From positions 26,504 through 90,503 of IMG/VR virus record IMGVR_UViG_3300021960_006131: DNA of 64,000 nucleotides; one strand, given 5' to 3'. This DNA comes from a virus. Shown here piece after piece: positions 4,479-23,601 of the stretch. Numbering within the stretch: position 1 is the stretch's first letter; the number at the start of each line of letters is the position of its first letter. Position numbers and translations under genes: made by a program. The notes under the pieces are model-generated. The model worked only from the letters and a program-made list of their open reading frames with translations, had not been told where the DNA came from and searched no databases.

Positions 4479-4645
4479 AACAAAGTCCACAAATAATAAA
4501 AAAATGCATATCCTATAATTATTGGTATCCAGTACGCAATATTAAATAATACAGTAAATGTACCACTAATTAATGCAATTACACCATCTAAACCACCAAA
4601 GTATAAAAAGGTTAAAGCAAGAATAACTATTAAGAATGTAAACAT
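4475..4645 (-). CDS. 56-aa hydrophobic membrane protein (absent from the ORF track)
   Basis: Translates as MFTFLIVILALTFLYFGGLDGVIALISGTFTVLFNIAYWIPIIIGYAFFYYLWTLF*; AGGAG Shine-Dalgarno and its own sigma70 promoter upstream. Confidence 0.85.
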   Translation of the reverse strand: MFTFLIVILALTFLYFGGLDGVIALISGTFTVLFNIAYWIPIIIGYAFFYYLWTLF

Positions 4646-4674
4646 AAATCTCCTACAATTTTTATTACTCTTAT

Positions 4675-4703
4675 ATTATAGTAAATTTTGAGATGTTTGT
4701 CAA
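4675..4703 (-). promoter_or_regulatory. Consensus sigma70-type (early) promoter
   Basis: The minus strand reads TTGACA-aacatctcaaaatttac (17 nt)-TATAAT, upstream of the 56-aa ORF. Confidence 0.9.
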
Positions 4704-4704
4704 C

Positions 4705-6123: not shown

Positions 6124-6745
6124 ATCCTATATGTATTGTATCTCTATGATTTTCTGTTGGAAAATTTATTCTGTGTAATTGTCTTGCTCTAAATATTACA
6201 GCAGTACCAGGAGTGCCATTATAAAACTTACCAGGTATGTCGCTTACACAAGAATATTTATTTTTTATTTCACTATATGATTTATCAGCGATGTATGTTA
6301 AGTCTTCTTCCATACATACAGCACCGTTACTTTCGTTCACATCATTTAAATAAATTATCATTTTAATTCTGTTTTCTGGTTGGTAAGTATCAGCATGCCA
6401 AAACAATGAAGGCCAGCCGCCTGATAAAAGTTGTTTGTGTTCAGACTGATCAAATTCAACATCTGGTATTCTTGAACCCCACAAATAGGCATTTGACATT
6501 TCTGGCACAGGATACATTCTCTCCATTCTGAACTCTTTTATATTACCAGGTATCCATTCTTCTATAATTTTATATTCGTGAAGCATATTAAATTGATCTA
6601 TATTACTAAAAAGATCAATAGCAGGCATATTATTGAATTGCAATTCGCTTGTTAATTGAATTTTGTGATACAATTTATACAAATTTATTAAAATAGCATT
6701 TGGGATTTTAAAACAATATGGTTTGCCTTTGTCTGGTATTTGCAT
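6110..6745 (-). CDS. 2OG-Fe(II) oxygenase-like (PhyH-like) protein
   Basis: WHAD (HxD), IYLNDVNESNG, GTAVIF...LHR and a terminal R. Confidence 0.72.
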   Translation of the reverse strand: MQIPDKGKPYCFKIPNAILINLYKLYHKIQLTSELQFNNMPAIDLFSNIDQFNMLHEYKIIEEWIPGNIKEFRMERMYPVPEMSNAYLWGSRIPDVEFDQSEHKQLLSGGWPSLFWHADTYQPENRIKMIIYLNDVNESNGAVCMEEDLTYIADKSYSEIKNKYSCVSDIPGKFYNGTPGTAVIFRARQLHRINFPTENHRDTIHIGFDSE

Positions 6746-6750
6746 ATCAA

Positions 6751-6757
6751 TAGTTAT
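6751..6757 (-). promoter_or_regulatory. Late promoter variant ATAACTA
   Basis: ATAACTA-TTGAT-ATG; same 5-nt spacing to the ATG as four other sites. Confidence 0.6.
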
Positions 6758-8439: not shown

Positions 8440-8449
8440 CTTTTCTCCT

Positions 8450-9982: not shown

Positions 9983-10578
9983 CTTTGTAAATTTACTACT
10001 TCTTTACCTATTGTAAGATCTATTAGTTTTAAATCTGTTCTATTTGTAATTAATTCTACAACACGTTTTGCATAGTCTGTAATGTTAGTGGCATCAATAC
10101 CGCTAGGACTTACACAGAACGCATTACACACGTTGCTAGACGCACTATATACTAATTGTTGCATCATACTTCTTAATACTGCATACATTACAAACTGTTT
10201 ATCCTGTTGTGGCCATGCTGTTATTGAACTGCTTACACCACAAATTGTTATTTCTTTACTGCTATTTTCTAACCATTTTATTAACTTTGTAAAAAATAAA
10301 AACAATGGTGTATAATTAAAAAACATACTTGACATTTGTTGTAAAGTTATATTACTATAATTCTTATTATCTATTACTAATGCAATTTGTTCTTCTATGT
10401 TTGCATTTATTACAATTATATCAGGTACTACTTTACCATCTATAAACTTATCAAAGTCTGCATAATCAACATTATCTCTACCAAAGCCATATGTACTAAT
10501 ATCTTGTTCTTTAAGTTTCTTAATAATATTACCTGCGAAATCAGACGACTTTCCAAACACCCATGCTAATTTTCTCAT
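9979..10578 (-). CDS. Degenerate short-chain dehydrogenase/reductase (Rossmann fold) protein
   Basis: VFGKSSDFAG in place of TGxxxGxG, INAN, GVSS, YAVLR in place of YxxxK, and VSPSG. Confidence 0.55.
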   Translation of the reverse strand: MRKLAWVFGKSSDFAGNIIKKLKEQDISTYGFGRDNVDYADFDKFIDGKVVPDIIVINANIEEQIALVIDNKNYSNITLQQMSSMFFNYTPLFLFFTKLIKWLENSSKEITICGVSSSITAWPQQDKQFVMYAVLRSMMQQLVYSASSNVCNAFCVSPSGIDATNITDYAKRVVELITNRTDLKLIDLTIGKEVVNLQR

Positions 10579-11537
10579 GTACCTATCAATCCTTTTTCTA
10601 ATAGGTCTTGTATTTGTCGCTCAGTGATCATTGCACCCCATCTTTTTGGGTTTACAAATGTTGCTTTGAAAAATTTACTCATTTGATCGTTGGGTTCGAA
10701 CAGCATCATACCTTGAACTTCTTCATTGATTTCTTCTCCTAGTTCATTAACAAGTTGTTTTAGATGTTCATTGCTTTCTATATTGTTTTTTGTTTCTTCA
10801 AAAAAGCCTTTGAACCAATCGTAATCTGATATCTGATTAGTATTCCAGTTACTTAAAACTGTCATCTTACAACCTAGTCTTGCTCCATAGATTGCCCACC
10901 AACCATTGTCTACGTCTGTGCCAACATTACACCAAACATTTAATCTGTTAAAGTTACCATACCATATCTTATCTTGGAACACATGAGGTGATACTCTTGC
11001 GCCTTGGTCTAAACTTAGTTTAACACCTTCCCTAAAGCCGGCTCTAAAGGCTTGGAATGGACTAGCAGTTTGATGTACTTCTGAGAATATATCATTCATT
11101 TGTATGTAGTTAAGTTTCCAACAAAACTCCATACCTTCGCCATCTGTTGCGGCTTCGTGTGTATTGATACTTTTTGTATATTCTTTAGGCCAGCACTTTA
11201 ATCCGCCGTTGCCGTATACTAATCCATTTAATAAATTTTTAGCATTCCAACTGAAGATACTTTCTGATATATCGTTACCATCATGATCTTTTTCTGGAAA
11301 CTCTAGTTCCTGATTAAAGAATTCATCCATAACAATGTTGTCACCGTCTACTGTGATAAAACGATCTGTTTCTGATTGATTGGCACATTCTTTGTGTGCG
11401 GCATCAAAGCCTTTAACTCCGTGTACACGTTTTGCCCACGGTACTTTGTTTAGTAGGTCTGCCCAGTTTTCTTCACAGTTGGGTTCATCGTATGAAATAT
11501 AAAATATGTCTAATTCTGTGACGTCTATTTTTGCCAT
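10575..11537 (-). CDS. Glycosyltransferase-like (GT-A) protein
   Basis: DIFYISYDE...VHGVKGFDAAHK...FITVDGD (DxD)...YGNGGLK...AFRAGFREGVKL; homologous to the last module of 745-3789. Confidence 0.72.
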   Translation of the reverse strand: MAKIDVTELDIFYISYDEPNCEENWADLLNKVPWAKRVHGVKGFDAAHKECANQSETDRFITVDGDNIVMDEFFNQELEFPEKDHDGNDISESIFSWNAKNLLNGLVYGNGGLKCWPKEYTKSINTHEAATDGEGMEFCWKLNYIQMNDIFSEVHQTASPFQAFRAGFREGVKLSLDQGARVSPHVFQDKIWYGNFNRLNVWCNVGTDVDNGWWAIYGARLGCKMTVLSNWNTNQISDYDWFKGFFEETKNNIESNEHLKQLVNELGEEINEEVQGMMLFEPNDQMSKFFKATFVNPKRWGAMITERQIQDLLEKGLIGT

Positions 11538-11586: not shown

Positions 11587-12204
11587 TTAGGCGACTCTGA
11601 TATACTTATCAAATATTTTTCTGGTATAAATGCTTTTATCTGAACAGTCATGATTGATTTTAAATTCTAATTCTTTATTTTTGAATAAATCTGGTAATGA
11701 TATTTCTATGCTATCATATAAAAAATGCGGATCATCGATGCTGGTAATATACAATGCCATCCTTTGTTCACCTTTAAATGAAAAGTTATCTATATCAACA
11801 TTATTTGTAATATTAGTATGTAGTTTATCACTGAGTGTTACAATTACTTTATTTTTTAATCCTTGTATTTTTACGTCAAACTCTGTGTTATCAGACAGTC
11901 TTATTTGTGTTAGCATCTTTGATGCTGATTTAAACTTTTCTAGTTCTATTACTTTGGTAACAAAAGAATATACTCCTTCCTCATTGGGATTAGTTAATAC
12001 TAAAAAATCATTAACAGTTTTATTATTTTTTGGATCTTCAAATATTTTACACTGATCATATGTAAATACCGCATGGTTATATTCTAAGTAATCATCAGAT
12101 TCTGCTCTTCCATAATAAGAAATAGCACCGCTGTCGTCAAAATACACGTGACGATCACTTTGCTGTTGGGCCTTTCTAGCCTTTTCTAAGTCCTCTAACT
12201 TCAT
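11587..12204 (-). CDS. Hypothetical protein
   Basis: 205-aa ORF overlapping the upstream gene; no recognisable motif. Confidence 0.75.
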   Translation of the reverse strand: MKLEDLEKARKAQQQSDRHVYFDDSGAISYYGRAESDDYLEYNHAVFTYDQCKIFEDPKNNKTVNDFLVLTNPNEEGVYSFVTKVIELEKFKSASKMLTQIRLSDNTEFDVKIQGLKNKVIVTLSDKLHTNITNNVDIDNFSFKGEQRMALYITSIDDPHFLYDSIEISLPDLFKNKELEFKINHDCSDKSIYTRKIFDKYIRVA

Positions 12205-13054
12205 CTTCTAATGTCTCTATAATATTATTTGTTAACCATTCTTTATCTACATAATGAAACGGATAGTGTTGTTGAAAGTTTCCTACTTTAAAATTGGATA
12301 CACTACTAAAATAGGTAGGTATGCTCAGTGTCCATTTTTCATCTAACAATGAACCACCTGGCAGATCCTGTATAAAACTTTTCATGTGAGTAAATGTAGG
12401 CATATCTGTTAAATCGTCTACTGTTGTTTCGCTTTCTAATCCTAATAGTTGTATTGCTAATGCATACACAACATCAGCACTTAACTTATTAGGCTTACCA
12501 TTTGGCATGTATTTAAAATAAAACCTTTGCCAATTTTCAAATATCAACTGAATCATCTTAAAAAGTTCACTTGCTGTTTCTGATTTTTTAAAATAAAAGA
12601 ATGCTGTATATATGTTTGGCATATTATTTTTAATAAAGTATTCTCTATAATATTTATTGCTAGGGTCTGCTGGTTCTCCCCTATATGTTTTAATATTTGT
12701 AGTTGCCCATACATCTTTTTCTTCTAATATATCCCACCAATGACTAACATCAGTAGGAAAAATCATATCAGCATCTAGTATGACTGTTTCATCGTATGGC
12801 GTCATATAATAGTATTTCCATTTGTTATCTATTTTCCAATCTGCATCTGCGGCATCATCCTTCCATGGAATCTCTATTACCTTATCAAAAACTTTTTTAT
12901 ATTTTTCTGGTACTGTACTTTTATCTTCTACACATACTGCTAGGTTACTTACTTTTGATTGTGTGATCTTTAAACTTAATGCAAGAGCATAAGCCATTCT
13001 TAGATAATTAGTATCTGCAGAATTTTGTGCAATAACAATATAACCTTTAGACAT
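12176..13054 (-). CDS. GT-A fold nucleotide-sugar transferase-like protein (GT8-like)
   Basis: TPYDETVILDADM (DxD), YTAFFYFKK and C-terminal FHY; paralog of 13825-14706. Confidence 0.72.
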   Translation of the reverse strand: MSKGYIVIAQNSADTNYLRMAYALALSLKITQSKVSNLAVCVEDKSTVPEKYKKVFDKVIEIPWKDDAADADWKIDNKWKYYYMTPYDETVILDADMIFPTDVSHWWDILEEKDVWATTNIKTYRGEPADPSNKYYREYFIKNNMPNIYTAFFYFKKSETASELFKMIQLIFENWQRFYFKYMPNGKPNKLSADVVYALAIQLLGLESETTVDDLTDMPTFTHMKSFIQDLPGGSLLDEKWTLSIPTYFSSVSNFKVGNFQQHYPFHYVDKEWLTNNIIETLEDEVRGLRKG

Positions 13055-13832
13055 TTTCTAGCCTCGGTTTGATATGTTCTTCAAAATACATTCTATACCC
13101 TTTTTCGTTTGGGTGATTTTGATAATCATCTTCGCTCCAGACATCGCTATCAAGTTCTTCATATTTTATTACTTCTTGTTGTATGCCTGGTAGATCAATA
13201 CAATCTTTGATTTGATCTGTTAAATGTGTATACATCCATTTATGCTCAGGATTCAACACTTTTTGTCTATGCTTTTCATTTATCCATATAAACATAACTT
13301 TTATATTATGTTTTTCACAAAAAGATTTTACCAAATTATATAATGTTAATGTATTAAGTATGTCTGTGTATTCGTGTTGTAAATTTACATAATATTGAGT
13401 AGATAAATGATATAGTTCTGGAAATTCTTTCTCAACATCTTGATGCGAATGCCACGGAGCAATAGATACCCAGCCATTGTCTTCTATAGAAACTGCATCA
13501 TAATCTGTAAAACTTCTAGGGGTAATAACTCTCTCCCCCAAAAATAAATTTGGACTATCTGGAATCATTTCGCGGCTAGATAAAAAAGCATATCTATGGA
13601 TCATTGTCCATTGCACTATTCCAAATATGTCTTCTGGTAAAACACCTGAGTCTAGTTTTTGTTTTACATGATTCATAAATGTATGTGCAATAAATTGATT
13701 ACCGCATCCACCTACACCTAGTGGTATTAATTCTCTACCCAAATGTTCTGCAACAAAGTCATTCCACATTTTATGCGGTGTGGATATTGTGTCACTAAAA
13801 CTACAACCAGATGATATAAAATACTTAGGCAT
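13047..13832 (-). CDS. SGNH/GDSL hydrolase-like protein
   Basis: GCSFS (block I), GxGN (block II) and HPNEKG (block V). ATG at 13832 has a GGAG SD. Confidence 0.7.
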   Translation of the reverse strand: MPKYFISSGCSFSDTISTPHKMWNDFVAEHLGRELIPLGVGGCGNQFIAHTFMNHVKQKLDSGVLPEDIFGIVQWTMIHRYAFLSSREMIPDSPNLFLGERVITPRSFTDYDAVSIEDNGWVSIAPWHSHQDVEKEFPELYHLSTQYYVNLQHEYTDILNTLTLYNLVKSFCEKHNIKVMFIWINEKHRQKVLNPEHKWMYTHLTDQIKDCIDLPGIQQEVIKYEELDSDVWSEDDYQNHPNEKGYRMYFEEHIKPRLENV

Positions 13833-14706
13833 TATATATCTCCAGTAATTTATCTGCATGTCTTTGAAGTGCCCACTTATTCATAATGTGTAAGTCTACA
13901 TCTTTCCATCTGCTTAGTTGAAAATCTGCATTTGATTTAGGTTTTTCTAAAAACATTGTGATATCATTTACAGCATTCACTTCATGTATATCATCCCAAT
14001 CAAATGTTTTATACATTTTTTCTATGGGTAATTGTTGTTGTGCTTCACTTTTAAATCCATTCATAACATGAGCGGCAACACTAAAACTGTAATCGTTTCT
14101 GTAAAGCATGCCTGGTATTTCATATAAGTCTTTATAGTAGTTCCAATTTTCTTTTACGTCTTTTACTACATTAAAAAAACTTTCTACATATGGCGTCTTT
14201 TTAAAATACACAACTGTTGCCCAATACATTGATATACCAAAATCGCTTATTCTTTTATATGATTCTGATCTACCAAATTGTATATCTTGCACATCTCTGT
14301 GTAGCATAATATCGTTTTTATGATCCCAACAAGCATTTAAACTGTCGCTGAGTACTAAGTAATCTACATCCATTACTATGGTTTCGTCATAAGGTGATAT
14401 ATCATATGCATCGCATCTGTTAGCATTGTAGAATGGTAATACTTTTACACTATGATTAGTGTCTCTATAATTGCGATGATTTTTTGCTTTGAAGTCTAAA
14501 TCTTTTTCAGCAATAATTATATTATCAATATAATCTTCTACTTTGATATTTTTAGATGTGTAGTCATACGAGTTTTGATCAGTAACTACTGTAATGCTAT
14601 GCTTACCAAGATTGTATCTAATCATACTTGCTGTTACACAGGCAAGTTTTAAATACTCAATCTCTTCATTGTTATGAGCGTATAATAAAAATCCTTTAGT
14701 CGTCAT
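13825..14706 (-). CDS. GT-A fold nucleotide-sugar transferase-like protein
   Basis: SPYDETIVMDVDY (DxD), WATVVYFKK, RNDYSFS and HIMNK. Confidence 0.72.
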   Translation of the reverse strand: MTTKGFLLYAHNNEEIEYLKLACVTASMIRYNLGKHSITVVTDQNSYDYTSKNIKVEDYIDNIIIAEKDLDFKAKNHRNYRDTNHSVKVLPFYNANRCDAYDISPYDETIVMDVDYLVLSDSLNACWDHKNDIMLHRDVQDIQFGRSESYKRISDFGISMYWATVVYFKKTPYVESFFNVVKDVKENWNYYKDLYEIPGMLYRNDYSFSVAAHVMNGFKSEAQQQLPIEKMYKTFDWDDIHEVNAVNDITMFLEKPKSNADFQLSRWKDVDLHIMNKWALQRHADKLLEIYNA

Positions 14707-15058
14707 CGAGATCTATGTCTATTAGTTTATGGACCTTGCGAGCCTTTCTTAACTTGACATATTCTGCATGATAATCATTTGTCACTTCAAAGTATCTACT
14801 CAACAGTTCATCTAAAAATGCTGATAGGTCTTCTATTTGTATAGGGTTTTCGTAGTTGTCTATTAAGACACTTTCGTTATACTCTTTTTCAATTAGTGTA
14901 TTTACAAATGTTATTAGTTCTTGTGATACTGTAAATGTACCACCATTTGTAGAAAGGATAAGCCTCGTTTGAGTTTTGGATCTCAAAGAGGCTATCTGAT
15001 TATTTAATGTTTGCCGATAATTGGCGAATTCTAATGCTTTGGTAAGTCGCTCACTCAT
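14696..15058 (-). CDS. Hypothetical protein
   Basis: 120-aa ORF with a CAGGA SD and late motifs upstream. Confidence 0.8.
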   Translation of the reverse strand: MSERLTKALEFANYRQTLNNQIASLRSKTQTRLILSTNGGTFTVSQELITFVNTLIEKEYNESVLIDNYENPIQIEDLSAFLDELLSRYFEVTNDYHAEYVKLRKARKVHKLIDIDLDDD

Positions 15059-15077
15059 ACAAGTCCTGTGTTGTGTA

Positions 15078-15095
15078 TATTTACAAACTATTTAT
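15078..15095 (-). promoter_or_regulatory. Tandem late promoter motifs (ATAAATA and GTAAATA)
   Basis: The minus strand reads ATAAATAgtttGTAAATA upstream of the gene starting at 15058. Confidence 0.55.
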
Positions 15096-15097
15096 TA

Positions 15098-15994
15098 TTA
15101 TAAATCTGAGTTTGTAGTATAAGTCGGTGTAGCAACTACAACACTATAACCATTTGGCAATGTTCCACTATTAGGTCTATACTGTCCAGAAACACTTGTT
15201 AATGTTCCGTCAACACTATCAAAATATCCTCTACCTGTATGTGAATCACCAAATGTGATTAAAAATCTCAATACAGTTGAACTATCTGCTCTTGCTTGAA
15301 TAGAATAATAGTTAGTTGAGTATGACCCAGAACCTGCTTTAGTATATATAGTTTGGTATGTTGTTGTTAAATCATTATTACCAATACTTGTAGTAGTTCC
15401 TGAACTTGCAGTAGTTTGAGTATAATTCATTTTAATTGTACCCATAGCACTTAACATGTTGGTCCAGTCTGTGTTCTGATCAGTAGTTGAACCACCACTT
15501 CTACTTGCTGTAAAATATAAACTTCCGCCTGCATTAAAAAATGCATTTCTAATTGCGGCACTTCCAAAAGTAACAGTAACATCATGAGTAACTGTAGTAC
15601 TCCATGCGGCTGTTCTAGTACTAGTGTCTTTTGCTTCTTGCGACAAGTATGACGCATCAGCAGTTAACCTAGCATTATATCCGTTAGTTATTGTAGATTG
15701 TATATTATTTAAATCTGTGTCTTGAATTAGTGCGGCATTACTAACGTCTGAAACGTTGTTACTTGCACCTGTATAAACTGCAATATCCTGAGCGGCATTA
15801 ATTATGTCATTAGTGTTTGTGTCGGTAATTGTTGCACCGGCGGCTGGATTATGAACACTCCAACTTTGACCCCAACCTTCGTTTGAGCCACCTGGAGTAC
15901 CAGTTATTAATAAAATATTATTCCTTGCAACGTCCCAATCAGCGGCGGTTATTGTTGAACCTGCTGATCTATTCGTCATGGTTGATAATGCCAT
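15098..15994 (-). CDS. Putative virion structural (tail/fibre-associated) protein
   Basis: S/T/G/N-rich, predicted beta-rich, repeated (G)xxITAADW/ITDTN/IQDTD motif; late promoter and AGGAG SD; next to fibre genes. Confidence 0.65.
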   Translation of the reverse strand: MALSTMTNRSAGSTITAADWDVARNNILLITGTPGGSNEGWGQSWSVHNPAAGATITDTNTNDIINAAQDIAVYTGASNNVSDVSNAALIQDTDLNNIQSTITNGYNARLTADASYLSQEAKDTSTRTAAWSTTVTHDVTVTFGSAAIRNAFFNAGGSLYFTASRSGGSTTDQNTDWTNMLSAMGTIKMNYTQTTASSGTTTSIGNNDLTTTYQTIYTKAGSGSYSTNYYSIQARADSSTVLRFLITFGDSHTGRGYFDSVDGTLTSVSGQYRPNSGTLPNGYSVVVATPTYTTNSDL

Positions 15995-16048
15995 TGTTTT
16001 CTCCTAAATCGATTTAGTTGTTACCTTGCGATAACATTTTGTACAAAT

Positions 16049-16057
16049 GTATTTATC
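16049..16057 (-). promoter_or_regulatory. Late promoter GATAAATAC
   Basis: Intergenic, upstream of the gene starting at 15994. Confidence 0.7.
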
Positions 16058-16069
16058 AAAAATAAGTGA

Positions 16070-18007
16070 TTATGTGTCTTGAGTAAACCTTTTTGTCCAC
16101 AAAGTAAGACTGTATTTAACGCCTTCTTCTAGCGGTTCACACACATGAGGATGTGTAACTTGCCCAGGCCACATCAGCATTAAACCTCTTGTAATGTGCC
16201 TGTTTGTAAAATGCTGTCTAGGAAATGTTAATTCAGCACCTTGATAGTTATCATTTAATTTAACACTACCGCTGACCATACTAGCATCATTATGTAATGC
16301 TAATTCTGTTTGTGTATCTAGGCTATATCGCATAGCAAAGAAGTCTCTTATACCGTACATACTCATAGGTGGCCAATATGCTTCTAATTGCGGCCATATG
16401 TTTTTGGTTAAATGGTTTTCTAAATGTTTATATAAATTTGGACATAATTTATTAATTCTAATTTCTTGAGCCGGATAAGCATCATCAGGTCGTGGTGCCC
16501 AACCACCTGCTTCGTCACATGCTCCAATTAAATCGTCGCACATCTGCGGTGTCATGTATTCAAATGCTACAATATCATCTGCTACAGTCCATATTTTATT
16601 ATACTTTGCTAGATTTATAGGTACAACACTACCTTTATTCATTATTTGATTGACTAGTGATCTATATGCTGTTTTATCATCAGGACCACCATTGCCATGC
16701 AATACACAACTGTAGCAACCTGTTTCAGAATTATAAACTTGATTATTATTGCTTACACTTAATGAGTTTGCTGTACCACTTACACATTGAAATATATAAT
16801 TCTCTACATCTAATTTAATATTAAATTTACCACTTAAAAACAATTTTTGATAATACAGTTGATCGTCATCTTTCTTTTTAATGTCTGTTCTAAGCATTTC
16901 TTTTAAAACAACTGCTCTACCTATAAAACCACCACTATTTAAAAATCTATTTCTGGTATGAACTTTTGGAAATTGATCTGCTATACTATCATCTGGCCAT
17001 ATAAGTGGTTCAGCACCAAATACTACATCAGCACCAAACTGTTTAAATCTTTTAACTAATTCTTGTTCGTTATCGTTAATGATGACATCATACCCGTCTA
17101 CAAACATTACTATATCATGGTCGTCAACATTACGCAATCTACTTCTAAGATAATGAACTTTGTGTCCGCCACCGGGACCATCTGCCATTACACCGCCTTC
17201 CCATGGCTCACCTACGCCTAACATTTCTAATTTTACATCGTGTGTTTTACAACTATTGATTAAGTCTTCTGCTTTTAAACTTTCAGTTGCTACAGTGAAT
17301 ACTTTAAACTCTTTCCATTCTTTAAATGTAATAGCAGTTTCAGTGTCTGTTTTTCCTATCTTTGTTTCTCTAGCATACGGATGAAATACATTTGTTTTAT
17401 ATGCCAATCCTTTTAGTTTATTAAAATTTTTAAATTGTGGGTAAGTTTCTATTAGTGGGTTTGTACCTAACATCATGGGAATGTATTCATCTGCAGGTAT
17501 CATGTATTGCAATGCATCAGCATTTAAAAGTTTTTTAGCACCTTCAACACTTAAGGCATAACCGGCTGTCCAATAACAATATCCTGGTATTTCAAATAAA
17601 TCATCAAATCCCTGAGCCTTATCGTCCATGTTCCATTTTGATAGATAAACTAAATCAAATTCTTCTAATCTTTCTTTTATTTGTGTAATGTTATATGTTT
17701 CGACATTGTGATATAAATCATCTTCTAGTATAACTGCAGGTTCGTTATTTTTAACTATCTTGCCCCATGCAGTAATATGACTTAACATACAACCTACTTC
17801 GCCAGTTGTCAACGGTCTATTTTCTAAAGGATCTAACCAATTTTTGCACACTTGCATACCTTGACTTAGAACTTTACTATAGTCAACTAAGTTACCATCA
17901 ATGCCTTGAATACGTTCATAATCTGTTATTTCTAACTTTGCAAAAAGATCTAACATATTTTGATTTCGATCAGTTCGTTTATCTAAATTAATATAATAAT
18001 GTTTCAT
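16070..18007 (-). CDS. Three-domain fusion: GT25 (COLGALT-like) + PLOD-type glycosyltransferase + lysyl-hydroxylase-like 2OG-Fe(II) oxygenase
   Basis: GT25: INLDKRTDR, LTTGEVGCMLSH, LEDD, YWTAGYALS, IPADEY. PLOD-GT: TVAT, GGGHKV, MFVDGYDV, FGAE, RFLNSGGFIG, DDDQLYY, LHGNG. Hydroxylase: RYSLDTQTELALHND, PGQVTHPH, GVKY. ATG at 18007 overlaps the upstream stop as ATGA. Confidence 0.88.
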   Translation of the reverse strand: MKHYYINLDKRTDRNQNMLDLFAKLEITDYERIQGIDGNLVDYSKVLSQGMQVCKNWLDPLENRPLTTGEVGCMLSHITAWGKIVKNNEPAVILEDDLYHNVETYNITQIKERLEEFDLVYLSKWNMDDKAQGFDDLFEIPGYCYWTAGYALSVEGAKKLLNADALQYMIPADEYIPMMLGTNPLIETYPQFKNFNKLKGLAYKTNVFHPYARETKIGKTDTETAITFKEWKEFKVFTVATESLKAEDLINSCKTHDVKLEMLGVGEPWEGGVMADGPGGGHKVHYLRSRLRNVDDHDIVMFVDGYDVIINDNEQELVKRFKQFGADVVFGAEPLIWPDDSIADQFPKVHTRNRFLNSGGFIGRAVVLKEMLRTDIKKKDDDQLYYQKLFLSGKFNIKLDVENYIFQCVSGTANSLSVSNNNQVYNSETGCYSCVLHGNGGPDDKTAYRSLVNQIMNKGSVVPINLAKYNKIWTVADDIVAFEYMTPQMCDDLIGACDEAGGWAPRPDDAYPAQEIRINKLCPNLYKHLENHLTKNIWPQLEAYWPPMSMYGIRDFFAMRYSLDTQTELALHNDASMVSGSVKLNDNYQGAELTFPRQHFTNRHITRGLMLMWPGQVTHPHVCEPLEEGVKYSLTLWTKRFTQDT

Positions 18008-18576
18008 CGCCAATGTGGGCCTTCCACCCATGTTACTAAACTGTGTCTAGTGCCACTAGTTACTGGTGTGACTCTGTGCCTGTGAAAACTTGGAAATACT
18101 ATCACTGATCCTTTGCTAAATGCTTCTGAAGGTAACTGCGGTAATATTGTATCAAATTGAAACTCACCACCTTCGTATTCTGATGGGTCTGTTAATTGAA
18201 ATACTAAACTTAATTTTCTATGAAAAGATCTACTTTCTGCCCAATCTACATCGTGATGCCAATCGTACTTGCCTGGATTTTCAGGATTTCCTTCGTACTT
18301 TGTAAACTGTATTTCGTTTACATAACGCAAGTCCAGATCAAAAGAATCTCTGTTTGCCTGATTGGCATAATACCATATTTCGTCTACTATTGCTTTTTCT
18401 GATTTAGGATTAAGCCAACGTATTTCGCTTTTACGATATGATTCATCATGCTTACTTTCTTCAAATCCTATTACAGCCTCACGTGGCTCATAGTTTTCTG
18501 TTGCGTAATTTACTATGTAATCGCACCAGCCTGGGTCTAATGCTTGATTAAAATATAGCCAATAGTCTCCTTTCAT
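18004..18576 (-). CDS. 2OG-Fe(II) oxygenase (prolyl-4-hydroxylase/PKHD-like)
   Basis: YDWHHD, RKLS, YEGGEF, FPSFHRHRVTPVTSGTRHSLVTW. Confidence 0.92.
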   Translation of the reverse strand: MKGDYWLYFNQALDPGWCDYIVNYATENYEPREAVIGFEESKHDESYRKSEIRWLNPKSEKAIVDEIWYYANQANRDSFDLDLRYVNEIQFTKYEGNPENPGKYDWHHDVDWAESRSFHRKLSLVFQLTDPSEYEGGEFQFDTILPQLPSEAFSKGSVIVFPSFHRHRVTPVTSGTRHSLVTWVEGPHWR

Positions 18577-18581
18577 ACTAT

Positions 18582-18589
18582 TAGTTATC
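18582..18589 (-). promoter_or_regulatory. Late promoter variant GATAACTA
   Basis: GATAACTA-ATAGT-ATG. Confidence 0.65.
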
Positions 18590-18612
18590 TTGATTGAGGG
18601 GGAATTTTGTAA

Positions 18613-20775
18613 TTATTTGACGCCAATAACAACTTCGACTATGTCATCATCAAATGTTTCTTTGTCTTCTAATGCTCTACCAATTATGCATCGCATGTCG
18701 TATTCGTTTTTCATTAATGCTTTTGCAAATCCTGGTTTACTGCCACTTACAAGTCTTTCGCCTTTCTTAATACGTCCTTCAACTTTAACAGGTACTCTAC
18801 CTGTAAGTGCTATTGCAACGCCTTCTGCTTCTGAGTTCATTAAGTATGCTGGATTAGTACTTACAACACCAAAAACTTCTGGATCATTAAATGAAGTTGT
18901 TTGTGTGACTTCTGCACTACCGCCTAACTTCACAACTGTACCTGGCTCGTAGTCTGCATCTGCCGAATATATCTCAGCCAAGTCAGCATACCTTGCCGAT
19001 GTTGCTTCACCATAAAAAGTTCCAAATGATGCACTTGCTGAACCAAGATTTAGTGTATCTGAAGTTGGCACTATGTCAGTATCAACTTTACCAATAAACG
19101 AAATTGTGTCTGTATTAGAATTACCTAAATTAACATCACCGTTTAAATCTGTTCTACCGTTAAGATCTGTTACGCCATCAACCTGTAATGTGCCACTTAG
19201 ATCTGCATTCACACCAACAAAGTCACTCGTTGTTATAATGTTTTCGCCAACATATAGTTTCTTTTCAATTACTGCACCACCATCCAAATATAAAGGTGCT
19301 GTAGTATCTGATGTGCTTGCCGGATTGGTTGTGTTTGTAAGTCTTAACTTTCCAGCAAAGGTCATATCACCCGAAGCATTAATATTGTTAGTGTATAAAT
19401 TATTCCAATACCTTGTATTAGAACCTAAGTTATATGTTGTGGTTGCATCTGGAATAATATTTGTTGTGATTTCACCATTAATTGCAATGTTGTCTGCACT
19501 AGCATCACCTAATATAACAGAACCATTTAATGTTGTTGTTCCAGTATTTGTAATACTACCAAATGATCCACTGCCTGTAAATATTGCTGTGGTGCCTTTT
19601 ATTATAGTGCCGTCAATATTACCTGTGATCGCCGCTCCGCCGGATACTGCTAAACTACCTGAACTAATTGCTCCAGTGGCAATAACATTACCAATGTTAA
19701 TATTACCTGAACCACCTTGATAGTTTGAAACTCTAATTGTGTTTACAGTTGCATCGCCAATGTTAGATGTTGTTATAGGAAATGATGTAGTACCTATTCT
19801 TGTTGTAACATTTGCCGAAGTTGCTCTAACTTCTGCTGTTCCGCCAGTTTGCCCTAAAGATACTGTACCGTTAATATAAATGTTTTGCCATCTGTTTGTG
19901 CTACTACCTAAGTCATATGTATCACCTGCATCAGGAATAATATCACTTGATGTAGTAACAATAGATGTTATAGCAACATTACTAGCACCAATAACTAAGT
20001 TACCAGTTATACCATCAGATCTATAAGATCTGTCTGCTAATGCAATTGACGTATTAGAATACTCTTGTCTTAAGTTCATACCTGGTTTAATTTCAATACC
20101 AATACCGTCTGCTTCTGCTAATTGATCATACCAATTAAACGTATCACCGTGTGACGAGCCTGCTGTGTCTTTTGCAGTAAATGTAGCATGGTCACTGAAT
20201 ATAGCCATAACGGTTTCACCGCCTGGTCTAGTTGTACTTGACTCACCGTCATTGACGTAAACTAAGGCACTGACTGCCCTAGGTATATCACCGTTGTCTG
20301 TTAAGAAAATATTTCTAAGTTTTGTACCATATGCACTAGGTGTATTTAAATTACCAAAACTGGAATATTCATTTGAAACTTCACCTGCATAACTTGAATC
20401 TTTATAACTAACACCATCGTGAATTTTTAATTTATCATCTGTGGTGTCATAATACATTGCACCCGCTGTTAATCCATCAACTGGTGGCGTTGCTTGAACA
20501 ACTGGTGAAACTCTTGTCCATGTTGTTGTTGAGTCTTTGTAAACTCTTAAAACTTTTTCTGTGGTGTCATACCAAATTTGACCTACTAATGTGGTGTTTG
20601 GTTCAGGTGCAATAGGACTTGCAAAATTTTCTAAATGTCTTAAACTGTTTTCTGCAAATACTTGACCATAGTTAGTAACATTTTTACCAACTAATTTTAA
20701 ACTGAAAGCATTATTAATTGTACCGTCTTCAATTGTATAACTGACTCCTGTACTTGATGTTATTGTATATGCCAT
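18613..20775 (-). CDS. Tail fibre/spike-like protein with C-terminal peptidase G2/IMC-like autoproteolytic chaperone domain
   Basis: N-terminal LVGKNVTNYGQ...LENFA...GQIWYD anchor; repeats of IIPD..TYDLGS...W; C-terminal ARYADLAEIY...GVVSTNPAYLMN...ALTGRVPVKV. Confidence 0.8.
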   Translation of the reverse strand: MAYTITSSTGVSYTIEDGTINNAFSLKLVGKNVTNYGQVFAENSLRHLENFASPIAPEPNTTLVGQIWYDTTEKVLRVYKDSTTTWTRVSPVVQATPPVDGLTAGAMYYDTTDDKLKIHDGVSYKDSSYAGEVSNEYSSFGNLNTPSAYGTKLRNIFLTDNGDIPRAVSALVYVNDGESSTTRPGGETVMAIFSDHATFTAKDTAGSSHGDTFNWYDQLAEADGIGIEIKPGMNLRQEYSNTSIALADRSYRSDGITGNLVIGASNVAITSIVTTSSDIIPDAGDTYDLGSSTNRWQNIYINGTVSLGQTGGTAEVRATSANVTTRIGTTSFPITTSNIGDATVNTIRVSNYQGGSGNINIGNVIATGAISSGSLAVSGGAAITGNIDGTIIKGTTAIFTGSGSFGSITNTGTTTLNGSVILGDASADNIAINGEITTNIIPDATTTYNLGSNTRYWNNLYTNNINASGDMTFAGKLRLTNTTNPASTSDTTAPLYLDGGAVIEKKLYVGENIITTSDFVGVNADLSGTLQVDGVTDLNGRTDLNGDVNLGNSNTDTISFIGKVDTDIVPTSDTLNLGSASASFGTFYGEATSARYADLAEIYSADADYEPGTVVKLGGSAEVTQTTSFNDPEVFGVVSTNPAYLMNSEAEGVAIALTGRVPVKVEGRIKKGERLVSGSKPGFAKALMKNEYDMRCIIGRALEDKETFDDDIVEVVIGVK

Positions 20776-22874
20776 TATTTAACTAAAGCCTCCACTGTTC
20801 CAGCACCTTCATTTGGTTTGTCCGTAATTGCTATACCTATACAACTAGGTCCATTTACGTTCATGTTGTTTTCTGCCGCTTCGGCATGGCCTGGTGTGGC
20901 ACTATGTACTAGCACATCACCTTTTGAAACTGCTCCTACTACTTTTACTGGTACTCTACCTTTAAGTGCAACCGCTGTTACATGGTCGCCTTGTAATTCT
21001 GAATTCATTAAATATGCAGGGTTGTGTGATACTACTCCTGCTATTGACGGACTTGCTTTTACATCTGAAGTTGTTACTTCAGCATCACCGCCAAATACTA
21101 AAACTGTTCCTTCCTCATACTCTGTATCTGCCAAATATAACTCAGCCAAGTCAGCATATTGAGCCTGTGTGGCTGTTCCATTAAATGTATTTGCATACAT
21201 TGTTCCATATCTAACACTACTTGAACCAATGTTGTAAGTTCCTGATGGACCTGTTGCATATATATTTTGTGTTGTAATATCACTACTTGAAATTGCATTT
21301 ACAACTCTGGCATCTGTGAAGTATAAATTTGTGCCTTCACTTAAATTTGTTGTGCTAAATGCACTCATGTTTACTGCAATATCGTTTGCATTTACAGTAA
21401 TACCTGTTCCTGCGCCTACATTAAGTGTGACTGCACCTGAAGTGCCACCACCTGTAAGACCATTTCCAGCACCTACGCTCTCAATATCCCCTGCATCATT
21501 AGTGAAACTAAATGTACCAGTTGAACTATCATAACTTAAATCACCACCTGCACTAAACATTGCTCTTATTTCAGATTGGTCGGCTGTAATGGCACCAGTT
21601 CCACTATTATAATTAACACCACTGCTACCGCTTAATAATGCTCTGATTTCTGACGTATCTGCTGTTATGGCACCTGTTGTGCTATTATAATTTACGCCAC
21701 TGCTACCGCTTAAATGTGCTCTTACTTCACTGGCACTTGGGCCGGTATATGTAAATACGCCATTACTATATGTTAGGCTTCCGTCGCCGCCACTGTCAGT
21801 TACTGAAAACTTGCCCCTAATAGTTGCATCGGATATACTAAACTGTCCACCTGAATATGTTGTGTTAGTACCTGCTGAAAAATGTGCTCTTACTTCACTG
21901 GTGCTTGGGCCTGTATAAGTAAATACACCAGCACCATTGTATGCAAATGATCCGTCACCACCGGCATCTGTGGCACTAAAGAATCCTTCAATTTCTGATT
22001 CTGTATAAATTTTTTCGTAAGTTGACCCGTCTCTGGTTACTTCCCAGTAGTCTCCACTTTCGTTCCATCTTAATTGAACATTAGTTGATGTTCCTCTTTC
22101 AACTTCAATACCTGCATTTGCACTTGGAGTACCTGCTTCATTATTGTTAAGAACAATTAAATTATCGTCAACTGTTAAAGTTTCTGTATTTAAAATTGTT
22201 TGCGTACCATTAACAGTTAAATTACCGTCTATTGTTGCATTGTTGAAGGTTACATCTGATGTTGTTTCTACTGCTTGTCCTATAGCAATGACTCCGCTAC
22301 CTGAATTATAAGTAACTCCTGTGCCACCACTAAAATGTGCTCTTACTTCTGCGGCACTTGGACCGGTGTATGTAAATACACCTGTACTTGAATCGTATGC
22401 AAATGAACCGTCACCACCTGTATCTACATGTGATACCTTGCTTCTTATAGTTAAATCACTTAATACTTCTTTCCATTGATTACTGTGATATATTTTTAAA
22501 TCACCGGTACCTGTTGTAGAGTCAAAAAACATTTCTCCTGCTTCTACTGAACTACCTCTACTACTTGTAGGTGTCGACGTACCGCTTTTTGGTCTATATG
22601 CTAATTCTTCAAATTGTTCTGTATCATTTTTATAAACAGTTAAGTGATTACCTGTTTTATCAAACCAAAGTTGTCCAACTAATTTTACACCAGGATTTGG
22701 TGCTGTTGTACTTGCAAAATTTTCTAATTGTCTGATTGAATTTTGTGCAATAATTTGGCCATAGTTGGTTACATTTTTACCTATTAATGTCACGGAATAG
22801 TTAGTTTGGTCAAGTTGGTTATCGTTGACCGTAATCTCTCTATCGCCTTGAGTGTTTGAAAATACTATCGCCAT
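20775..22874 (-). CDS. Tail fibre-like protein, paralog of 18613-20775
   Basis: Same N-terminal anchor (LIGKNVTNYGQ...LENFA...GQLWFD) and C-terminal AQYADLAELY...ALKGRVPVKV; internal repeats. Confidence 0.8.
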   Translation of the reverse strand: MAIVFSNTQGDREITVNDNQLDQTNYSVTLIGKNVTNYGQIIAQNSIRQLENFASTTAPNPGVKLVGQLWFDKTGNHLTVYKNDTEQFEELAYRPKSGTSTPTSSRGSSVEAGEMFFDSTTGTGDLKIYHSNQWKEVLSDLTIRSKVSHVDTGGDGSFAYDSSTGVFTYTGPSAAEVRAHFSGGTGVTYNSGSGVIAIGQAVETTSDVTFNNATIDGNLTVNGTQTILNTETLTVDDNLIVLNNNEAGTPSANAGIEVERGTSTNVQLRWNESGDYWEVTRDGSTYEKIYTESEIEGFFSATDAGGDGSFAYNGAGVFTYTGPSTSEVRAHFSAGTNTTYSGGQFSISDATIRGKFSVTDSGGDGSLTYSNGVFTYTGPSASEVRAHLSGSSGVNYNSTTGAITADTSEIRALLSGSSGVNYNSGTGAITADQSEIRAMFSAGGDLSYDSSTGTFSFTNDAGDIESVGAGNGLTGGGTSGAVTLNVGAGTGITVNANDIAVNMSAFSTTNLSEGTNLYFTDARVVNAISSSDITTQNIYATGPSGTYNIGSSSVRYGTMYANTFNGTATQAQYADLAELYLADTEYEEGTVLVFGGDAEVTTSDVKASPSIAGVVSHNPAYLMNSELQGDHVTAVALKGRVPVKVVGAVSKGDVLVHSATPGHAEAAENNMNVNGPSCIGIAITDKPNEGAGTVEALVK
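21520..22425 (-). repeat. Intragenic protein repeats in the fibre shaft
   Basis: GGDGS(F/L)xY..GVFTYTGPSxxEVRAH three times and SGSSGVNYNSxTGAITADxSEIRA twice; DNA copies of aaatgtgctcttacttc are visible. Confidence 0.85.
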
Positions 22875-22884
22875 ATTTGTCCTA

Positions 22885-23562
22885 TTATGTCATCTGAATT
22901 CTTAAAGTATAAACTACTTCAATAATTCTATTAAAAGATTTTTGTACTGGATGAAACACCACATGTGTAAGTAACTCTGAACTACTACTTGCTGTCGTGG
23001 CATTATCCCCTGCTGTAAATGTCATTAATCCTAATTCGTCAAAGATGTAATCACCTTCGTTAGTAGCACTGGTATCAAAGTTATCTTGTCCTGAAGGTTC
23101 ATTTAAGCCTAATGTACAAGTTACTTTTAAGTCTGTAAAACCAGCACCTTCAATTACTTCTATTTTGTTATTTGTTTTGTCAGTGTTTGCTTCTGTATCA
23201 CTAACAACTTTTGCATAAGTTTTTCTGTATAAAGTAGCATCAGTTTCTCTTGTTTCACTGGTATTTGTACTTTTATATAAAACTTTACCTGCACTATCTA
23301 CACTAGAAGCACCGTTACCAAATGCCATAAAATGCACATAATCATTTGGTGCTACACCAGTTGAAGCACTGGTTCCTTTACCAATTGAGTTTGCTATTAA
23401 ATATCCTAAGTTTCCATAATGAATAGCATTTCTTTTATTAACTATTTCCTCACCGGATTCTTTATCTCTGATTAAGATATGACCAGATATGTTAAAGCCA
23501 ATAGTTGCATCTACTTGCTCTGTATTTGATTTATTTTCGTTTGTTGCGGTTTCTTCTTTCAT
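22885..23562 (-). CDS. Putative virion structural protein
   Basis: GHILIRD...KRNAIH...MAFGNG...FDELGL...LLTHVVFHPVQKS; late promoter; lies between the fibre genes and the giant protein. Confidence 0.7.
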   Translation of the reverse strand: MKEETATNENKSNTEQVDATIGFNISGHILIRDKESGEEIVNKRNAIHYGNLGYLIANSIGKGTSASTGVAPNDYVHFMAFGNGASSVDSAGKVLYKSTNTSETRETDATLYRKTYAKVVSDTEANTDKTNNKIEVIEGAGFTDLKVTCTLGLNEPSGQDNFDTSATNEGDYIFDELGLMTFTAGDNATTASSSSELLTHVVFHPVQKSFNRIIEVVYTLRIQMT

Positions 23563-23567
23563 ATAGG

Positions 23568-23575
23568 TATTTATC
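23568..23575 (-). promoter_or_regulatory. Late promoter GATAAATA
   Basis: GATAAATA-CCTAT-ATG. Confidence 0.75.
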
Positions 23576-23601
23576 TCTTTTTTAAACTACTGCTATAATT
23601 A

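Follow-up and report, generated by a model that had tools for sequence, protein, structure and literature searches.

A probable trifunctional collagen-type lysine-modifying enzyme, with candidate tail-fibre substrates, in an uncultured marine jumbo myophage

Results

The window analysed in this work, a stretch of 64,000 nucleotides within a 90.5-kb contig, carries on its minus strand a gene unit which opens with a 225-aa protein, p225 (22885..23562; phrog_11259, 3.8e-56), conserved in four close relatives at 69-88% identity. Two fibre genes follow, coding for proteins of 699 aa (20775..22874) and 720 aa (18613..20775), both without a collagen tract, then a 190-aa 2OG-Fe(II) oxygenase of the P4H/PKHD superfamily (18004..18576; PF13640, 2.1e-14, 54.7 bits) and, last, the enzyme which is the object of this study. 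Its location downstream of two fibre genes, part of the original prediction, is borne out, as both ORFs match tail-fibre PHROGs on their C-terminal part (1.7e-10 and 2.7e-13 for the 720- and the 699-aa ORF, respectively). Orthologues of the 720-aa fibre, at 77% identity, are present in four of the five relatives grouped in the same clade, the fifth featuring a 45% partial match. The 699-aa fibre is matched in 19 loci, five of which are the clade's own; its internal modules are also found in collagen-bearing fibres of other loci, and its C-terminal domain is common to the collagen fibres of two relatives, G006 and G011.

The stop of the 190-aa oxygenase and the start of the enzyme overlap in an ATGA, read directly from the sequence (...TGGCGATGAAACAT...), as had been proposed. 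The oxygenase itself had been described as P4H-like: this holds at the superfamily level, but its top solved relatives are of the PKHD/PiuC type, a PKHD-type hydroxylase (3dkq, 6.5e-7) preceding prolyl 4-hydroxylase (5c5t, 2.4e-4). Within NCBIfam only PRK05467 matches, below threshold, were obtained. Of 82 related loci, 41 contain a homologue, in many cases immediately ahead of the enzyme gene.

The late promoter assigned to the unit could stand only in modified form. The window holds no copy of the canonical T4 late sequence, TATAAATA, against 12.1 expected, but a one-base variant, GATAAATA, occurs six times, always on the minus strand and in intergenic gaps upstream of minus-strand genes; such gaps make up 2.6% of the window. 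One instance retrieved by the motif search (23568..23575, minus strand) heads the series p225, fibre, fibre, oxygenase, enzyme, and is probably the late-type promoter of the fibre-enzyme unit. The next one (16050..16057, minus strand), 13 nt past the enzyme stop, heads a set of downstream genes, p298 to p510, which lie outside the conserved module, because no relatives other than the five of the clade have them. Between 11 and 24 kb, sigma-70-like sites are not above chance (50 vs 60.8 +/- 7.8) and no minus-strand terminator was found. Among the other products of the contig are a UDP-glucose dehydrogenase, two proteins resembling GT-A enzymes and one resembling sulfotransferases.

The enzyme ORF, counted from the first ATG, spans 16070..18031 on the minus strand and encodes 653 aa, the numbering in which Pfam ranges are given below; the start common to its homologues is the ATG at 18007, which yields an ORF of 16070-18007 and a 645-aa product, identical to the database protein P0001. 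As read from Pfam and PDB alignments, the product is a fusion of a GT25, a PLOD-type GT and a lysyl-hydroxylase-type oxygenase domain, in this order from the N- to the C-terminus. The three-domain layout originally proposed is thus real, with coordinates close to those first given, and the DxxD, DDDQ and HxD...H motifs reported as intact are all seen in the PDB alignments (as FVDGYD, as KKKDDDQ, and as LHNDAS for HxD with THPH for the distal His).

The first domain (17324..17998, minus strand) is a COLGALT1-type GT25 glycosyltransferase, matching the COLGALT1 C-terminal domain at 4.4e-30 and Pfam Glyco_transf_25 (PF01755) over aa 10-183 (2.4e-24, 86.8 bits, cut-off 24). Only residues 315-608 of the COLGALT1 chain are matched: the phage protein begins at the GT25 domain and lacks the N-terminal, non-catalytic, UDP-Gal-binding GT domain of the human protein. 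According to a COLGALT1 report (PMC12987934), R354, D436 and D437 form the UDP/Mn site, D522 is the base, Y494/W495 with E523 clamp the hydroxylysine, S569/T571 act as a lid, and K470, T562 and Y561 line a cleft, the first two gating the glycine which follows hydroxylysine. In the alignment, the equivalents of R354, G377, C412, D436, D437, D463, Y494, W495, D522, E523 and T571 are all kept, the catalytic aspartates, E523 and the YW pair included; S569 is replaced by Thr and D461 by Glu, while K470, T562 and Y561 are not kept, being Trp, Glu and Arg, in a lid region where the alignment is uncertain.

The second domain (16649..17314, minus strand) is of the PLOD/LH3 type, that of the Gal-Hyl glucosyltransferases, and gives the strongest Pfam match, to GT_PLOD (PF25342; aa 240-461, 3e-61, 207.2 bits, cut-off 27). 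Its PDB matches are the GT domain of LH3 (4.3e-37) and mimivirus R699 (1.9e-32). The PDB alignment displays the motifs FVDGYD, HGNG, IWPD and KKKDDDQ, and the equivalents of LH3 W75, D112, D115, W145, D189-D191 with Q192, and H253 are kept; we take D112, D115 and H253 to be the Mn-binding DxxD and His, W145 the stacking Trp and D187-191 the poly-Asp loop, of whose five Asp KKKDDDQ retains three. One glycoloop Asp, retained by 58 of the 64 remaining rows in the alignment used for the tree, is Val in the window clade.

Some 20 residues lie between the end of GT_PLOD (aa 461) and the third domain, which starts at aa 482 (16094..16588, minus strand) and is a 2OG-Fe(II) oxygenase of the lysyl-hydroxylase type. 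Searched alone against PDB, it retrieves LH3 (6e-07) and the LH domain of mimivirus L230 (2.9e-06), and all six matches with E up to 1 are one or the other; a role in DNA-base hypermodification was rejected, as PDB matches are to lysyl hydroxylases only. The Pfam match to 2OG-FeII_Oxy_3 (PF13640; aa 574-646, 0.0011) falls, at 20.3 bits, under the cut-off of 27. The triad H572, D574, H621 is invariant in 52 homologues; the position of LH3 R729, which serves the 2OG C5 carboxylate as basic residue, is occupied by Lys (K631), as in at least 90% of homologues.

In the same 52 homologues E95, D96, D97, D173, E174, D304, D307, W337, D381, D382, Q383, H437, H572, D574, H619, H621 and K631 are nearly or fully invariant. 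The profile built on this family matches LH3 (3.2e-86), R699 (5.6e-55), COLGALT1 (9.4e-46, 159.8 bits), the L230 LH domain (1.1e-22, 83.6 bits) and R655 (5.6e-17), and the bacterial GT25 8xlz only at 1.4e-15 (60.1 bits); the best oxygenase other than lysyl hydroxylases is PiuC (6.4e-5, 24.9 bits). All three domains hence group, by profile comparison, with the collagen enzymes, PLOD3, COLGALT1 and L230 among them, rather than with LPS-type GT25 proteins or unrelated oxygenases.

The family is large. In IMG/VR, 546 of 597 stretches were confirmed, and a database protein search produced 412 matches; among the best 120 of these, the two GT domains of Pfam are found together in 113, and in 111 the match extends over 95% or more of the query. 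Representatives number 275 at E up to 1e-30. Carriers of the module include myoviruses, a siphovirus and jumbo phages. The enzyme is a member of PHROG 61 (2.8e-93, profile positions 1-630 of 689), labelled '2OG-Fe(II) oxygenase, moron/AMG', while database proteins are labelled 'GR25 family glycosyltransferase involved in LPS biosynthesis'. Homologues from Synechococcus phages S-CAM9, S-PRM1 and S-8S53/55/56 and Roseobacter phage CRP-6 share 36-40% identity over 91-99% of the query and the same position after the fibres; in their records the gene is called either 'hypothetical protein' or 2OG-Fe(II) oxygenase. These genes lie directly behind a collagen-bearing fibre, the enzyme being one to three genes downstream of a tail-fibre gene with a long G-X-K tract in the cultured phages S-CAM9, S-PRM1 and CRP-6, whereas the adjacent fibres of the window clade contain no collagen. 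A bacterial copy was also noticed in a sponge-symbiont MAG (query P0108), flanked by IS transposases; no collagen gene was found within 10 kb of it.

Collagen context was counted in 79 IMG/VR loci, using as denominators those with at least 5 kb on the side considered. Upstream, 35 of the 40 eligible loci, or 35 of 36 once the window's clade is set aside, have a same-strand collagen ORF within 5 kb of the enzyme; downstream, just one of 50 does (one of 45 outside the clade). In 55 distinct collagen tracts, totalling 7565 triplets, Lys occurs 2038 times at the Y position and never at X; Y is the position that collagen lysyl hydroxylases use. Tracts with an X-Pro of at least 0.1 are found in 31 loci with an oxygenase of the 190-aa type and 5 without, those below 0.1 in 1 locus with and 23 without. 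In these raw counts oxygenase presence strikingly tracks X-position Pro, but this is a lead only: of the phylogenetically independent pairs, 3 were concordant, none was discordant and 5 were uninformative (p 0.25). Collagen fibres are not always accompanied by the enzyme, because the 340-kb relative G014 (91% complete) features a collagen tract and no GT_PLOD match, in a search for which G001 served as positive control. No enzyme match was found in the distant jumbo relatives G007, G008, G009, G014 and G015, the positive control covering only G014 with GT_PLOD.

The absence of Gly-X-Y tracts from the window, already remarked, extends to the whole 90.5-kb contig, where runs of at least 4 triplets are limited to a 4-triplet run in a 50-aa frame and to poly-Gly in a 7041-aa protein. 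Similarly, the enzyme-bearing records of the five clade relatives contain no collagen tract except a Lys-free (GPQ)10, located inside a homologue of the giant protein in one of them. No excess of K-G or G-X-K-G was observed in either fibre (2 vs 2.4 expected for the 720-aa and 2 vs 1.9 for the 699-aa protein), p225, p298, the 7041-aa protein or gp6. Within the clade, dN/dS is 0.05-0.12 in each enzyme domain, and all three are under purifying selection. In the enzyme tree a long stem branch (0.75) leads to the clade, with 128 family-conserved positions kept and 11 changed.

In relatives, collagen fibre genes lie at positions beyond the contig end, along a path which runs through overlapping contigs of related, non-identical phages. 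G011 overlaps the contig end (5.3 kb at 79% nucleotide identity, followed by 616 nt at 90%), and G006 overlaps the relative G001 (91% over 7.1 kb). Both G011 and G006 contain two collagen fibre genes, encoding 1223-1429 aa and located 12-21 kb past the contig end; Lys is found only at Y (8+6 and 12+7, respectively) and never at X, Pro is found at X, and the proteins carry the C-terminal domain of the window's fibres. A further relative, G012, has a collagen tract too, some 16 kb beyond the same marker gene. In the close relatives the collagen fibre genes are thereby placed some 58-68 kb from the enzyme gene; extrapolating from them, the phage under study would itself possess the two fibres, with genes about 60 kb away on the other strand.

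Discussion

We hold, with reasonable though not full confidence, that this locus of an uncultured marine jumbo myophage encodes a trifunctional lysine-modifying enzyme of the collagen type, whose substrates are most likely two collagen-like tail fibres. Both the chemistry and the sugars are inferred. Acting in the host cytoplasm on fibre chains newly made and not yet folded, the enzyme would use its C-terminal 2OG/Fe(II) domain to hydroxylate the Y-position Lys of Gly-X-Lys repeats, giving 5-hydroxylysine. The N-terminal GT25 domain would then transfer a hexose, presumably galactose by analogy with COLGALT1, to the hydroxyl of Hyl, D173 acting as base, E174 holding the epsilon-amine and the Tyr-Trp pair clamping the side chain; the middle PLOD-type GT would add glucose to galactose, like LH3 and mimivirus R699. 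Hydroxylation of a further residue in these fibres, perhaps Pro at the X position, is probably the task of the 190-aa oxygenase. That phages complete the whole animal-type series Lys to Hyl to Gal-Hyl to Glc-Gal-Hyl in the bacterial cytoplasm, with a single 645-residue enzyme, is put forward more tentatively, with doubt slightly prevailing.

The substrate had been supposed to be either elsewhere or non-collagenous. The G-X-K fibres of G011 and G006 favour the former possibility, and the substrate is therefore likely to be collagenous and outside the window: on the evidence of these relatives, the two collagen-like tail-fibre proteins encoded beyond the contig end appear the most likely targets, the two collagen-free fibres directly upstream of the enzyme being less likely ones. 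The phage probably decorates its own fibres, because an enzyme of three predicted activities coexists with the lysine-rich, collagen-like fibres of the relatives past the contig end.

It might be argued that, in the window clade, the enzyme has moved to a non-collagen substrate, either the two upstream fibres or another virion protein, with lysines outside Gly-X-Y repeats being hydroxylated and glycosylated. The enzyme gene does stay in a tight unit with collagen-free fibres, and the long stem branch, the 11 clade-specific replacements, D to V in the PLOD glycoloop among them, and the absence of the residues gating Gly+1 in COLGALT1 are all compatible with such a shift. The gate residues, however, appear unconserved throughout the family, as far as the consensus line, with its columns matched approximately, can tell; local proteins feature no K-G or G-X-K-G excess, and overlapping relatives have G-X-K fibres ending in the same C-terminal domain. 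We consider this shift unlikely.

Nor do we attach much probability to a different chemistry on the same collagen-like fibres, in which the PLOD-type GT glucosylates Hyl directly, the product not being Glc-Gal-Hyl, and the GT25 domain adds another sugar or uses another acceptor. Donor specificity is unreadable from these alignments, the UDP-glucose dehydrogenase, the two GT-A-like proteins and the sulfotransferase-like protein of the contig count on this side, and mimivirus L230 is described as a lysyl hydroxylase and hydroxylysyl glucosyltransferase (PMC9546862). Yet the GT25 domain keeps the residues by which COLGALT1 holds Hyl (Y494, W495, E523), together with the base D522, and the matches of the PLOD-type domain are to R699 and LH3, both acting on Gal-Hyl. 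That the protein is instead a glycosyltransferase for LPS or the host surface, or an oxygenase of auxiliary metabolism, as implied by the names of the protein matches and the PHROG 61 category, is highly improbable, given the fused lysyl-hydroxylase-type domain, the fibre gene unit, the tight association with collagen fibres and a family profile scoring COLGALT1 at 159.8 bits vs 60.1 for bacterial GT25, and LPS modification was rejected on this latter ground.

For a trifunctional enzyme acting on collagen-like fibres, the closest known counterparts are human LH3/PLOD3 and COLGALT1/GLT25D1 (PDB 6fxk, 8zgc, 9evj, 9u7h), which feature the same three catalytic domains; in the comparison with LH3, the GT DxxD, His253, Trp145 and poly-Asp positions and the LH HxD...H are conserved. 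The human proteins form a two-protein complex, in agreement with the earlier statement that animals use separate proteins for these steps, and operate in the ER, whereas the phage protein is one chain of 645 aa, set in the bacterial cytoplasm, without the accessory (AC) domain of LH3 and with Lys in place of R729. Acanthamoeba polyphaga mimivirus is likewise a virus endowed with both collagen-like proteins, eight collagens, and lysine-modifying enzymes, L230 (GT and LH), R699 (Gal-Hyl glucosyltransferase) and R655 (GT25-like), as well as a P4H-superfamily oxygenase, the prolyl hydroxylase L593. Its lysine-modifying activities are spread over several genes (PMC9546862); the phage, in contrast, has three of them joined in one protein and infects a bacterium, with collagen occurring as a module of tail fibres.

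In our literature searches, which included papers on mimivirus R699 and on lysyl hydroxylases, no published description of hydroxylysine glycosylation in bacteriophages was found. Glycosylation through hydroxylysine is a known feature of animal collagens and of mimivirus. If the proposed function is true, such glycosylation would be a widespread step in finishing phage tail fibres, and the enzyme the smallest natural trifunctional collagen-modifying enzyme. Should the chemistry be confirmed, the receptor-binding fibres of phages would gain a post-translational modification that might affect their stability, protease resistance and host recognition, and genes in hundreds of marine phage contigs, at present listed as 'auxiliary metabolic' 2OG oxygenases or as glycosyltransferases of LPS, would have to be re-annotated. 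Such confirmation would also have a bearing on the origin of the animal LH3/COLGALT1 pair, and provide a compact enzyme, working in the bacterial cytoplasm, usable for modified recombinant collagen. Carriers such as S-CAM9, S-PRM1 and CRP-6 are in culture, which makes the prediction directly testable.

Relationship of the enzyme to collagen-modifying enzymes

The three-domain enzyme gene (window 16070-18007, minus strand) encodes 645 aa from the ATG common to its homologues. Its start overlaps, in an ATGA, the stop of the gene for a 190-aa oxygenase (18004..18576, minus strand): this coupling, part of the original observation, is read directly in the sequence. Upstream of the small oxygenase, two fibre-like genes, of 699 aa (20775..22874) and 720 aa (18613..20775), were found where they had been noted, along with a 225-aa gene, p225 (22885..23562). 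Pfam recognizes the GT25 (86.8 bits) and GT_PLOD (207.2 bits) domains of the enzyme, while its C-terminal 2OG oxygenase domain scores 20.3 bits, below the generic cut-off of 27.

In a single-sequence search, every solved structure that matched was a collagen enzyme: LH3/PLOD3 (4.3e-37 for the GT and 1e-05 for the LH domain), COLGALT1 (3.7e-30) and the mimivirus proteins R699 (1.9e-32), R655 (2.2e-06) and L230 (LH domain, 4e-05). A family profile built from 52 full-length homologues separated collagen enzymes clearly from others, with LH3 at 3.2e-86, R699 at 5.6e-55, COLGALT1 at 9.4e-46, the L230 LH domain at 1.1e-22 and a bacterial GT25 (8xlz) at 1.4e-15; the best oxygenase other than a lysyl hydroxylase was PiuC, at 6.4e-5. 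Searched alone against the PDB, the C-terminal domain gave six hits with E of 1 or less, every one of them to LH3 or L230. The assignment of the three domains as GT25, PLOD-type GT and LH-type oxygenase is borne out by the profile comparison, where they group with LH3, R699, COLGALT1 and L230. They do not group with LPS GT25 or unrelated oxygenases, the outcome named beforehand as a refutation, and that test is therefore answered.

Catalytic residues were read from PDB alignments against the GLT25D1 (COLGALT1) cryo-EM paper (PMC12987934). The GT25 domain retains equivalents of COLGALT1 R354, G377, C412, D436, D437 and D463, of the base D522, of E523, of the Tyr494-Trp495 clamp and of the lid T571; S569 is replaced by Thr and D461 by Glu. 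K470, T562 and Y561 are missing, the aligned residues being Trp, Glu and Arg; according to that paper, K470 and T562 gate the glycine after hydroxylysine. For LH3, numbering was anchored on the V80K mutant chain in the alignment. The PLOD-type GT domain retains the equivalents of LH3 W75, D112, D115, W145 and H253, together with three of the five loop Asp and the Gln; in LH3, D112, D115 and H253 bind Mn, W145 stacks and the Asp form a poly-Asp loop. The oxygenase domain keeps HxD and the distal His, with Lys at the position of LH3 R729. The retained positions are invariant or nearly so across the 52 homologues, and the HxD...H, DxxD and DDDQ motifs originally noted are intact.

By homology, the enzyme would work like the LH3/COLGALT1 pair and like mimivirus L230, R699 and R655 (PMC9546862), and its hydroxylation site and sugar identities are predicted on the same basis. 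Unlike both systems, it joins the domains in a single chain, ordered GT25 - GT - LH. Neither the accessory domain of LH3 nor the N-terminal domain of COLGALT1 is present, and the 2OG-binding position is occupied by Lys. Full-text literature searches and targeted reading turned up no account of phages that hydroxylate or glycosylate lysine. Iyer et al. 2010 (PMC2938197) propose, in general terms, hydroxylation of collagen-like proteins whose genes neighbour those of bacterial dioxygenases and sulfotransferases.

The GT25-GT-LH architecture is common, yet unnamed. PHROG 61 matches the enzyme end to end (2.8e-93). One protein search gave 412 matches; among the best 120 of them, both GT domains are present in 113 and query coverage is at least 95% in 111. 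A separate search gave 275 representatives, clustered at 50% identity, with E up to 1e-30. At least 546 IMG/VR stretches, from 597 matches listed, were confirmed as family. Sources call the members 'hypothetical protein', a 2OG-Fe(II) oxygenase, 'GR25 family glycosyltransferase involved in LPS biosynthesis' or, once, 'glycosyltransferase family 25 protein'. Outside phages, a sponge-symbiont MAG labelled Candidatus Poriferihabitaceae (865-kb contig, L097 10001-11941) encodes a homologue, P0108, with all three domains at full length (34% identity). Transposase genes of the Mutator, IS21 and DDE types surround it, and the absence of any collagen ORF within 10 kb speaks against a link with collagen.

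Collagen-like fibres next to the enzyme gene

In three cultured phages, the cyanomyoviruses S-CAM9 and S-PRM1 and the Roseobacter phage CRP-6, which has a tape-measure gene, the enzyme gene lies 1-3 genes behind a tail-fibre gene with a long G-X-K collagen tract (Gly-X-Y repeats with Lys at Y). Neighbourhoods were then counted over the 79 IMG/VR loci kept, considering same-strand collagen ORFs and only loci with at least 5 kb on the side concerned. A collagen ORF ends within 5 kb upstream of the enzyme in 35 of 40 loci, or 35 of 36 outside the window's clade (the window and its five closest loci), and starts within 5 kb downstream in 1 of 50 (1 of 45 outside the clade); at loci whose upstream sequence extends for 3-5 kb, it is 11 of 13. 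Over 7565 triplets from 55 distinct upstream tracts, Lys occupies Y 2038 times, being the second commonest Y residue, and X never, while Pro is found 1474 times at X and 118 at Y. Y-position Lys is the target of collagen lysyl hydroxylases. COLGALT1 galactosylates Y-position hydroxylysine that precedes Gly, according to PMC12987934. A counter-example is the distant jumbo relative G014 (340 kb, 91% complete): it contains a collagen tract, yet GT_PLOD found nothing there in a search that did match the relative G001.

No collagen ORF lies upstream of the enzyme in the window or in the five loci closest to it, which are 78-84% identical. Even so, the enzyme is under constraint: each domain has a dN/dS of 0.05-0.12 in comparisons with three relatives. 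Of the positions that 90% or more of the 64 remaining sequences conserve, 128 are retained and 11 replaced clade-wide, including an Asp to Val change in the PLOD glycoloop. In a quick ML tree the clade has support 100 and a stem 0.75 long, and it nests in a 14-row group (support 95), of whose 9 other rows 8 have collagen upstream; since the tree is unrooted and long branches meet there, we do not claim that collagen was lost.

Likely substrate beyond the contig end

The window is part of a 90.5-kb contig from an uncultured myophage, which carries T4-like genes for baseplate, late sigma factor and gp46/47. Its large baseplate wedge protein is nearest to those of jumbo phages, among them PA5oct and Atu_ph07 (~40% identity). 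CheckV completeness is 15-26% for the five closest records (56-93 kb), and no capsid, portal or terminase genes were found among the larger ORFs scanned; this makes the contig roughly one quarter of a genome of ~350 kb. ARAGORN found no tRNA or tmRNA genes in window 1-64000.

Two routes lead past the end of the contig. G001 (enzyme 84% identical) reaches 13 kb past the window, and its terminal 381-aa gene leads to G006 (26.5 kb), which overlaps it with 91% nt identity over 7.1 kb. The window's last complete gene, gp46-like, leads to G011 (32.6 kb), where it is 92% identical; G011 overlaps the last 5.8 kb of the contig (79% identity for 5.3 kb and 90% for the 616 nt that follow), continues 23 kb past its end and is syntenic with G006. 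Beyond the overlap, each record has two fibre genes (1399 and 1223 aa in G006, 1429 and 1302 aa in G011) with collagen tracts of 129-177 residues. Lys occurs in these tracts at Y (12+7 in G006, 8+6 in G011) and never at X; Pro occurs at X (18+15 and 10+16) and at Y 1+1 times in each record. In a third record, G012 (marker gene 84% identical), a collagen tract lies ~16 kb past the marker gene.

By synteny with these related phages, the window phage should carry G-X-K collagen fibre genes off the 90.5-kb contig, 12-21 kb beyond position 64000 and on the other strand, which would place them about 58-68 kb from the enzyme gene. The substrate had been predicted to be elsewhere or non-collagenous: the relatives favour the former.

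In the G006 and G011 fibres, the collagen tract directly precedes a C-terminal domain that the window's collagen-free 699- and 720-aa fibres share, and the fibres of window and relatives look like modular swaps. The shared ~130 residues (ATGPSGTYNIGSSSV...YADLAE...GRVPVKV) fall within window 18613-22874 (minus strand), G006 2671-10702 and G011 21428-30836.

Transcription and neighbouring genes

A late promoter had been placed ahead of the fibre-enzyme unit. The T4 late consensus TATAAATA has 0 occurrences in the window, against 12.1 expected. A variant, GATAAATA, has six sites (11562, 16050, 23568, 49327, 49974 and 59639). Each is a minus-strand site that precedes a minus-strand gene and falls in the intergenic gaps, which make up 2.6% of the window. 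The variant is probably the late-promoter motif of this phage, which has a gp55-like sigma gene (59746-60597). The site at 23568 stands ahead of the genes that run from p225 through both fibres and the oxygenase to the enzyme; the following one (16050) is past the enzyme stop, and no terminator-like sites were found on the minus strand in 11-24 kb. We infer from this arrangement that the five genes may be co-transcribed late in infection.

The 190-aa oxygenase (PF13640, 54.7 bits), originally described as P4H-like, is so at the level of the P4H/PKHD superfamily, but its best structures are PKHD-type hydroxylases (6.5e-7), ahead of the prolyl 4-hydroxylase entry 5c5t (2.4e-4). Of 82 related loci, 41 have a homologue; many of the 82 are truncated on the upstream side. 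In raw counts over related loci (L004-L082) the association with Pro-bearing collagen is strong: the oxygenase accompanies adjacent tracts with X-position Pro in 31 cases and is missing in 5, against 1 and 23 for the others; allowing for relatedness, just three independent co-changes remain (p 0.25), and action on X-position Pro is therefore a lead only.

A single ORF of 7041 aa (23602-44727, minus strand) contains a Gly/Pro-rich linker (GGGGGGGYSGGGGGPGNPPPQDPPPQDPP), and neither of its halves matches a Pfam family; the relative G004 has a 7575-aa homologue in which a (GPQ)10 mini-collagen free of Lys takes the place of this linker. Two paralogues of 292 and 293 aa (12176-13054 and 13825-14706, minus strand; BLASTP 3e-09), with no Pfam hits, occur only in the five clade relatives; the former is similar to phage clusters named 'nucleotide-diphospho-sugar transferase' in the ESM Atlas (score 0.98, though this may be its own cluster). 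A sugar/radical-chemistry set also lies near the fibres (window 6754-9982, minus strand; 11696-27077, plus strand, of the 90.5-kb contig G000 C1), comprising radical-SAM-like, UDP-glucose dehydrogenase, galactose-3-O-sulfotransferase-like and Nol-like carbamoyltransferase genes.
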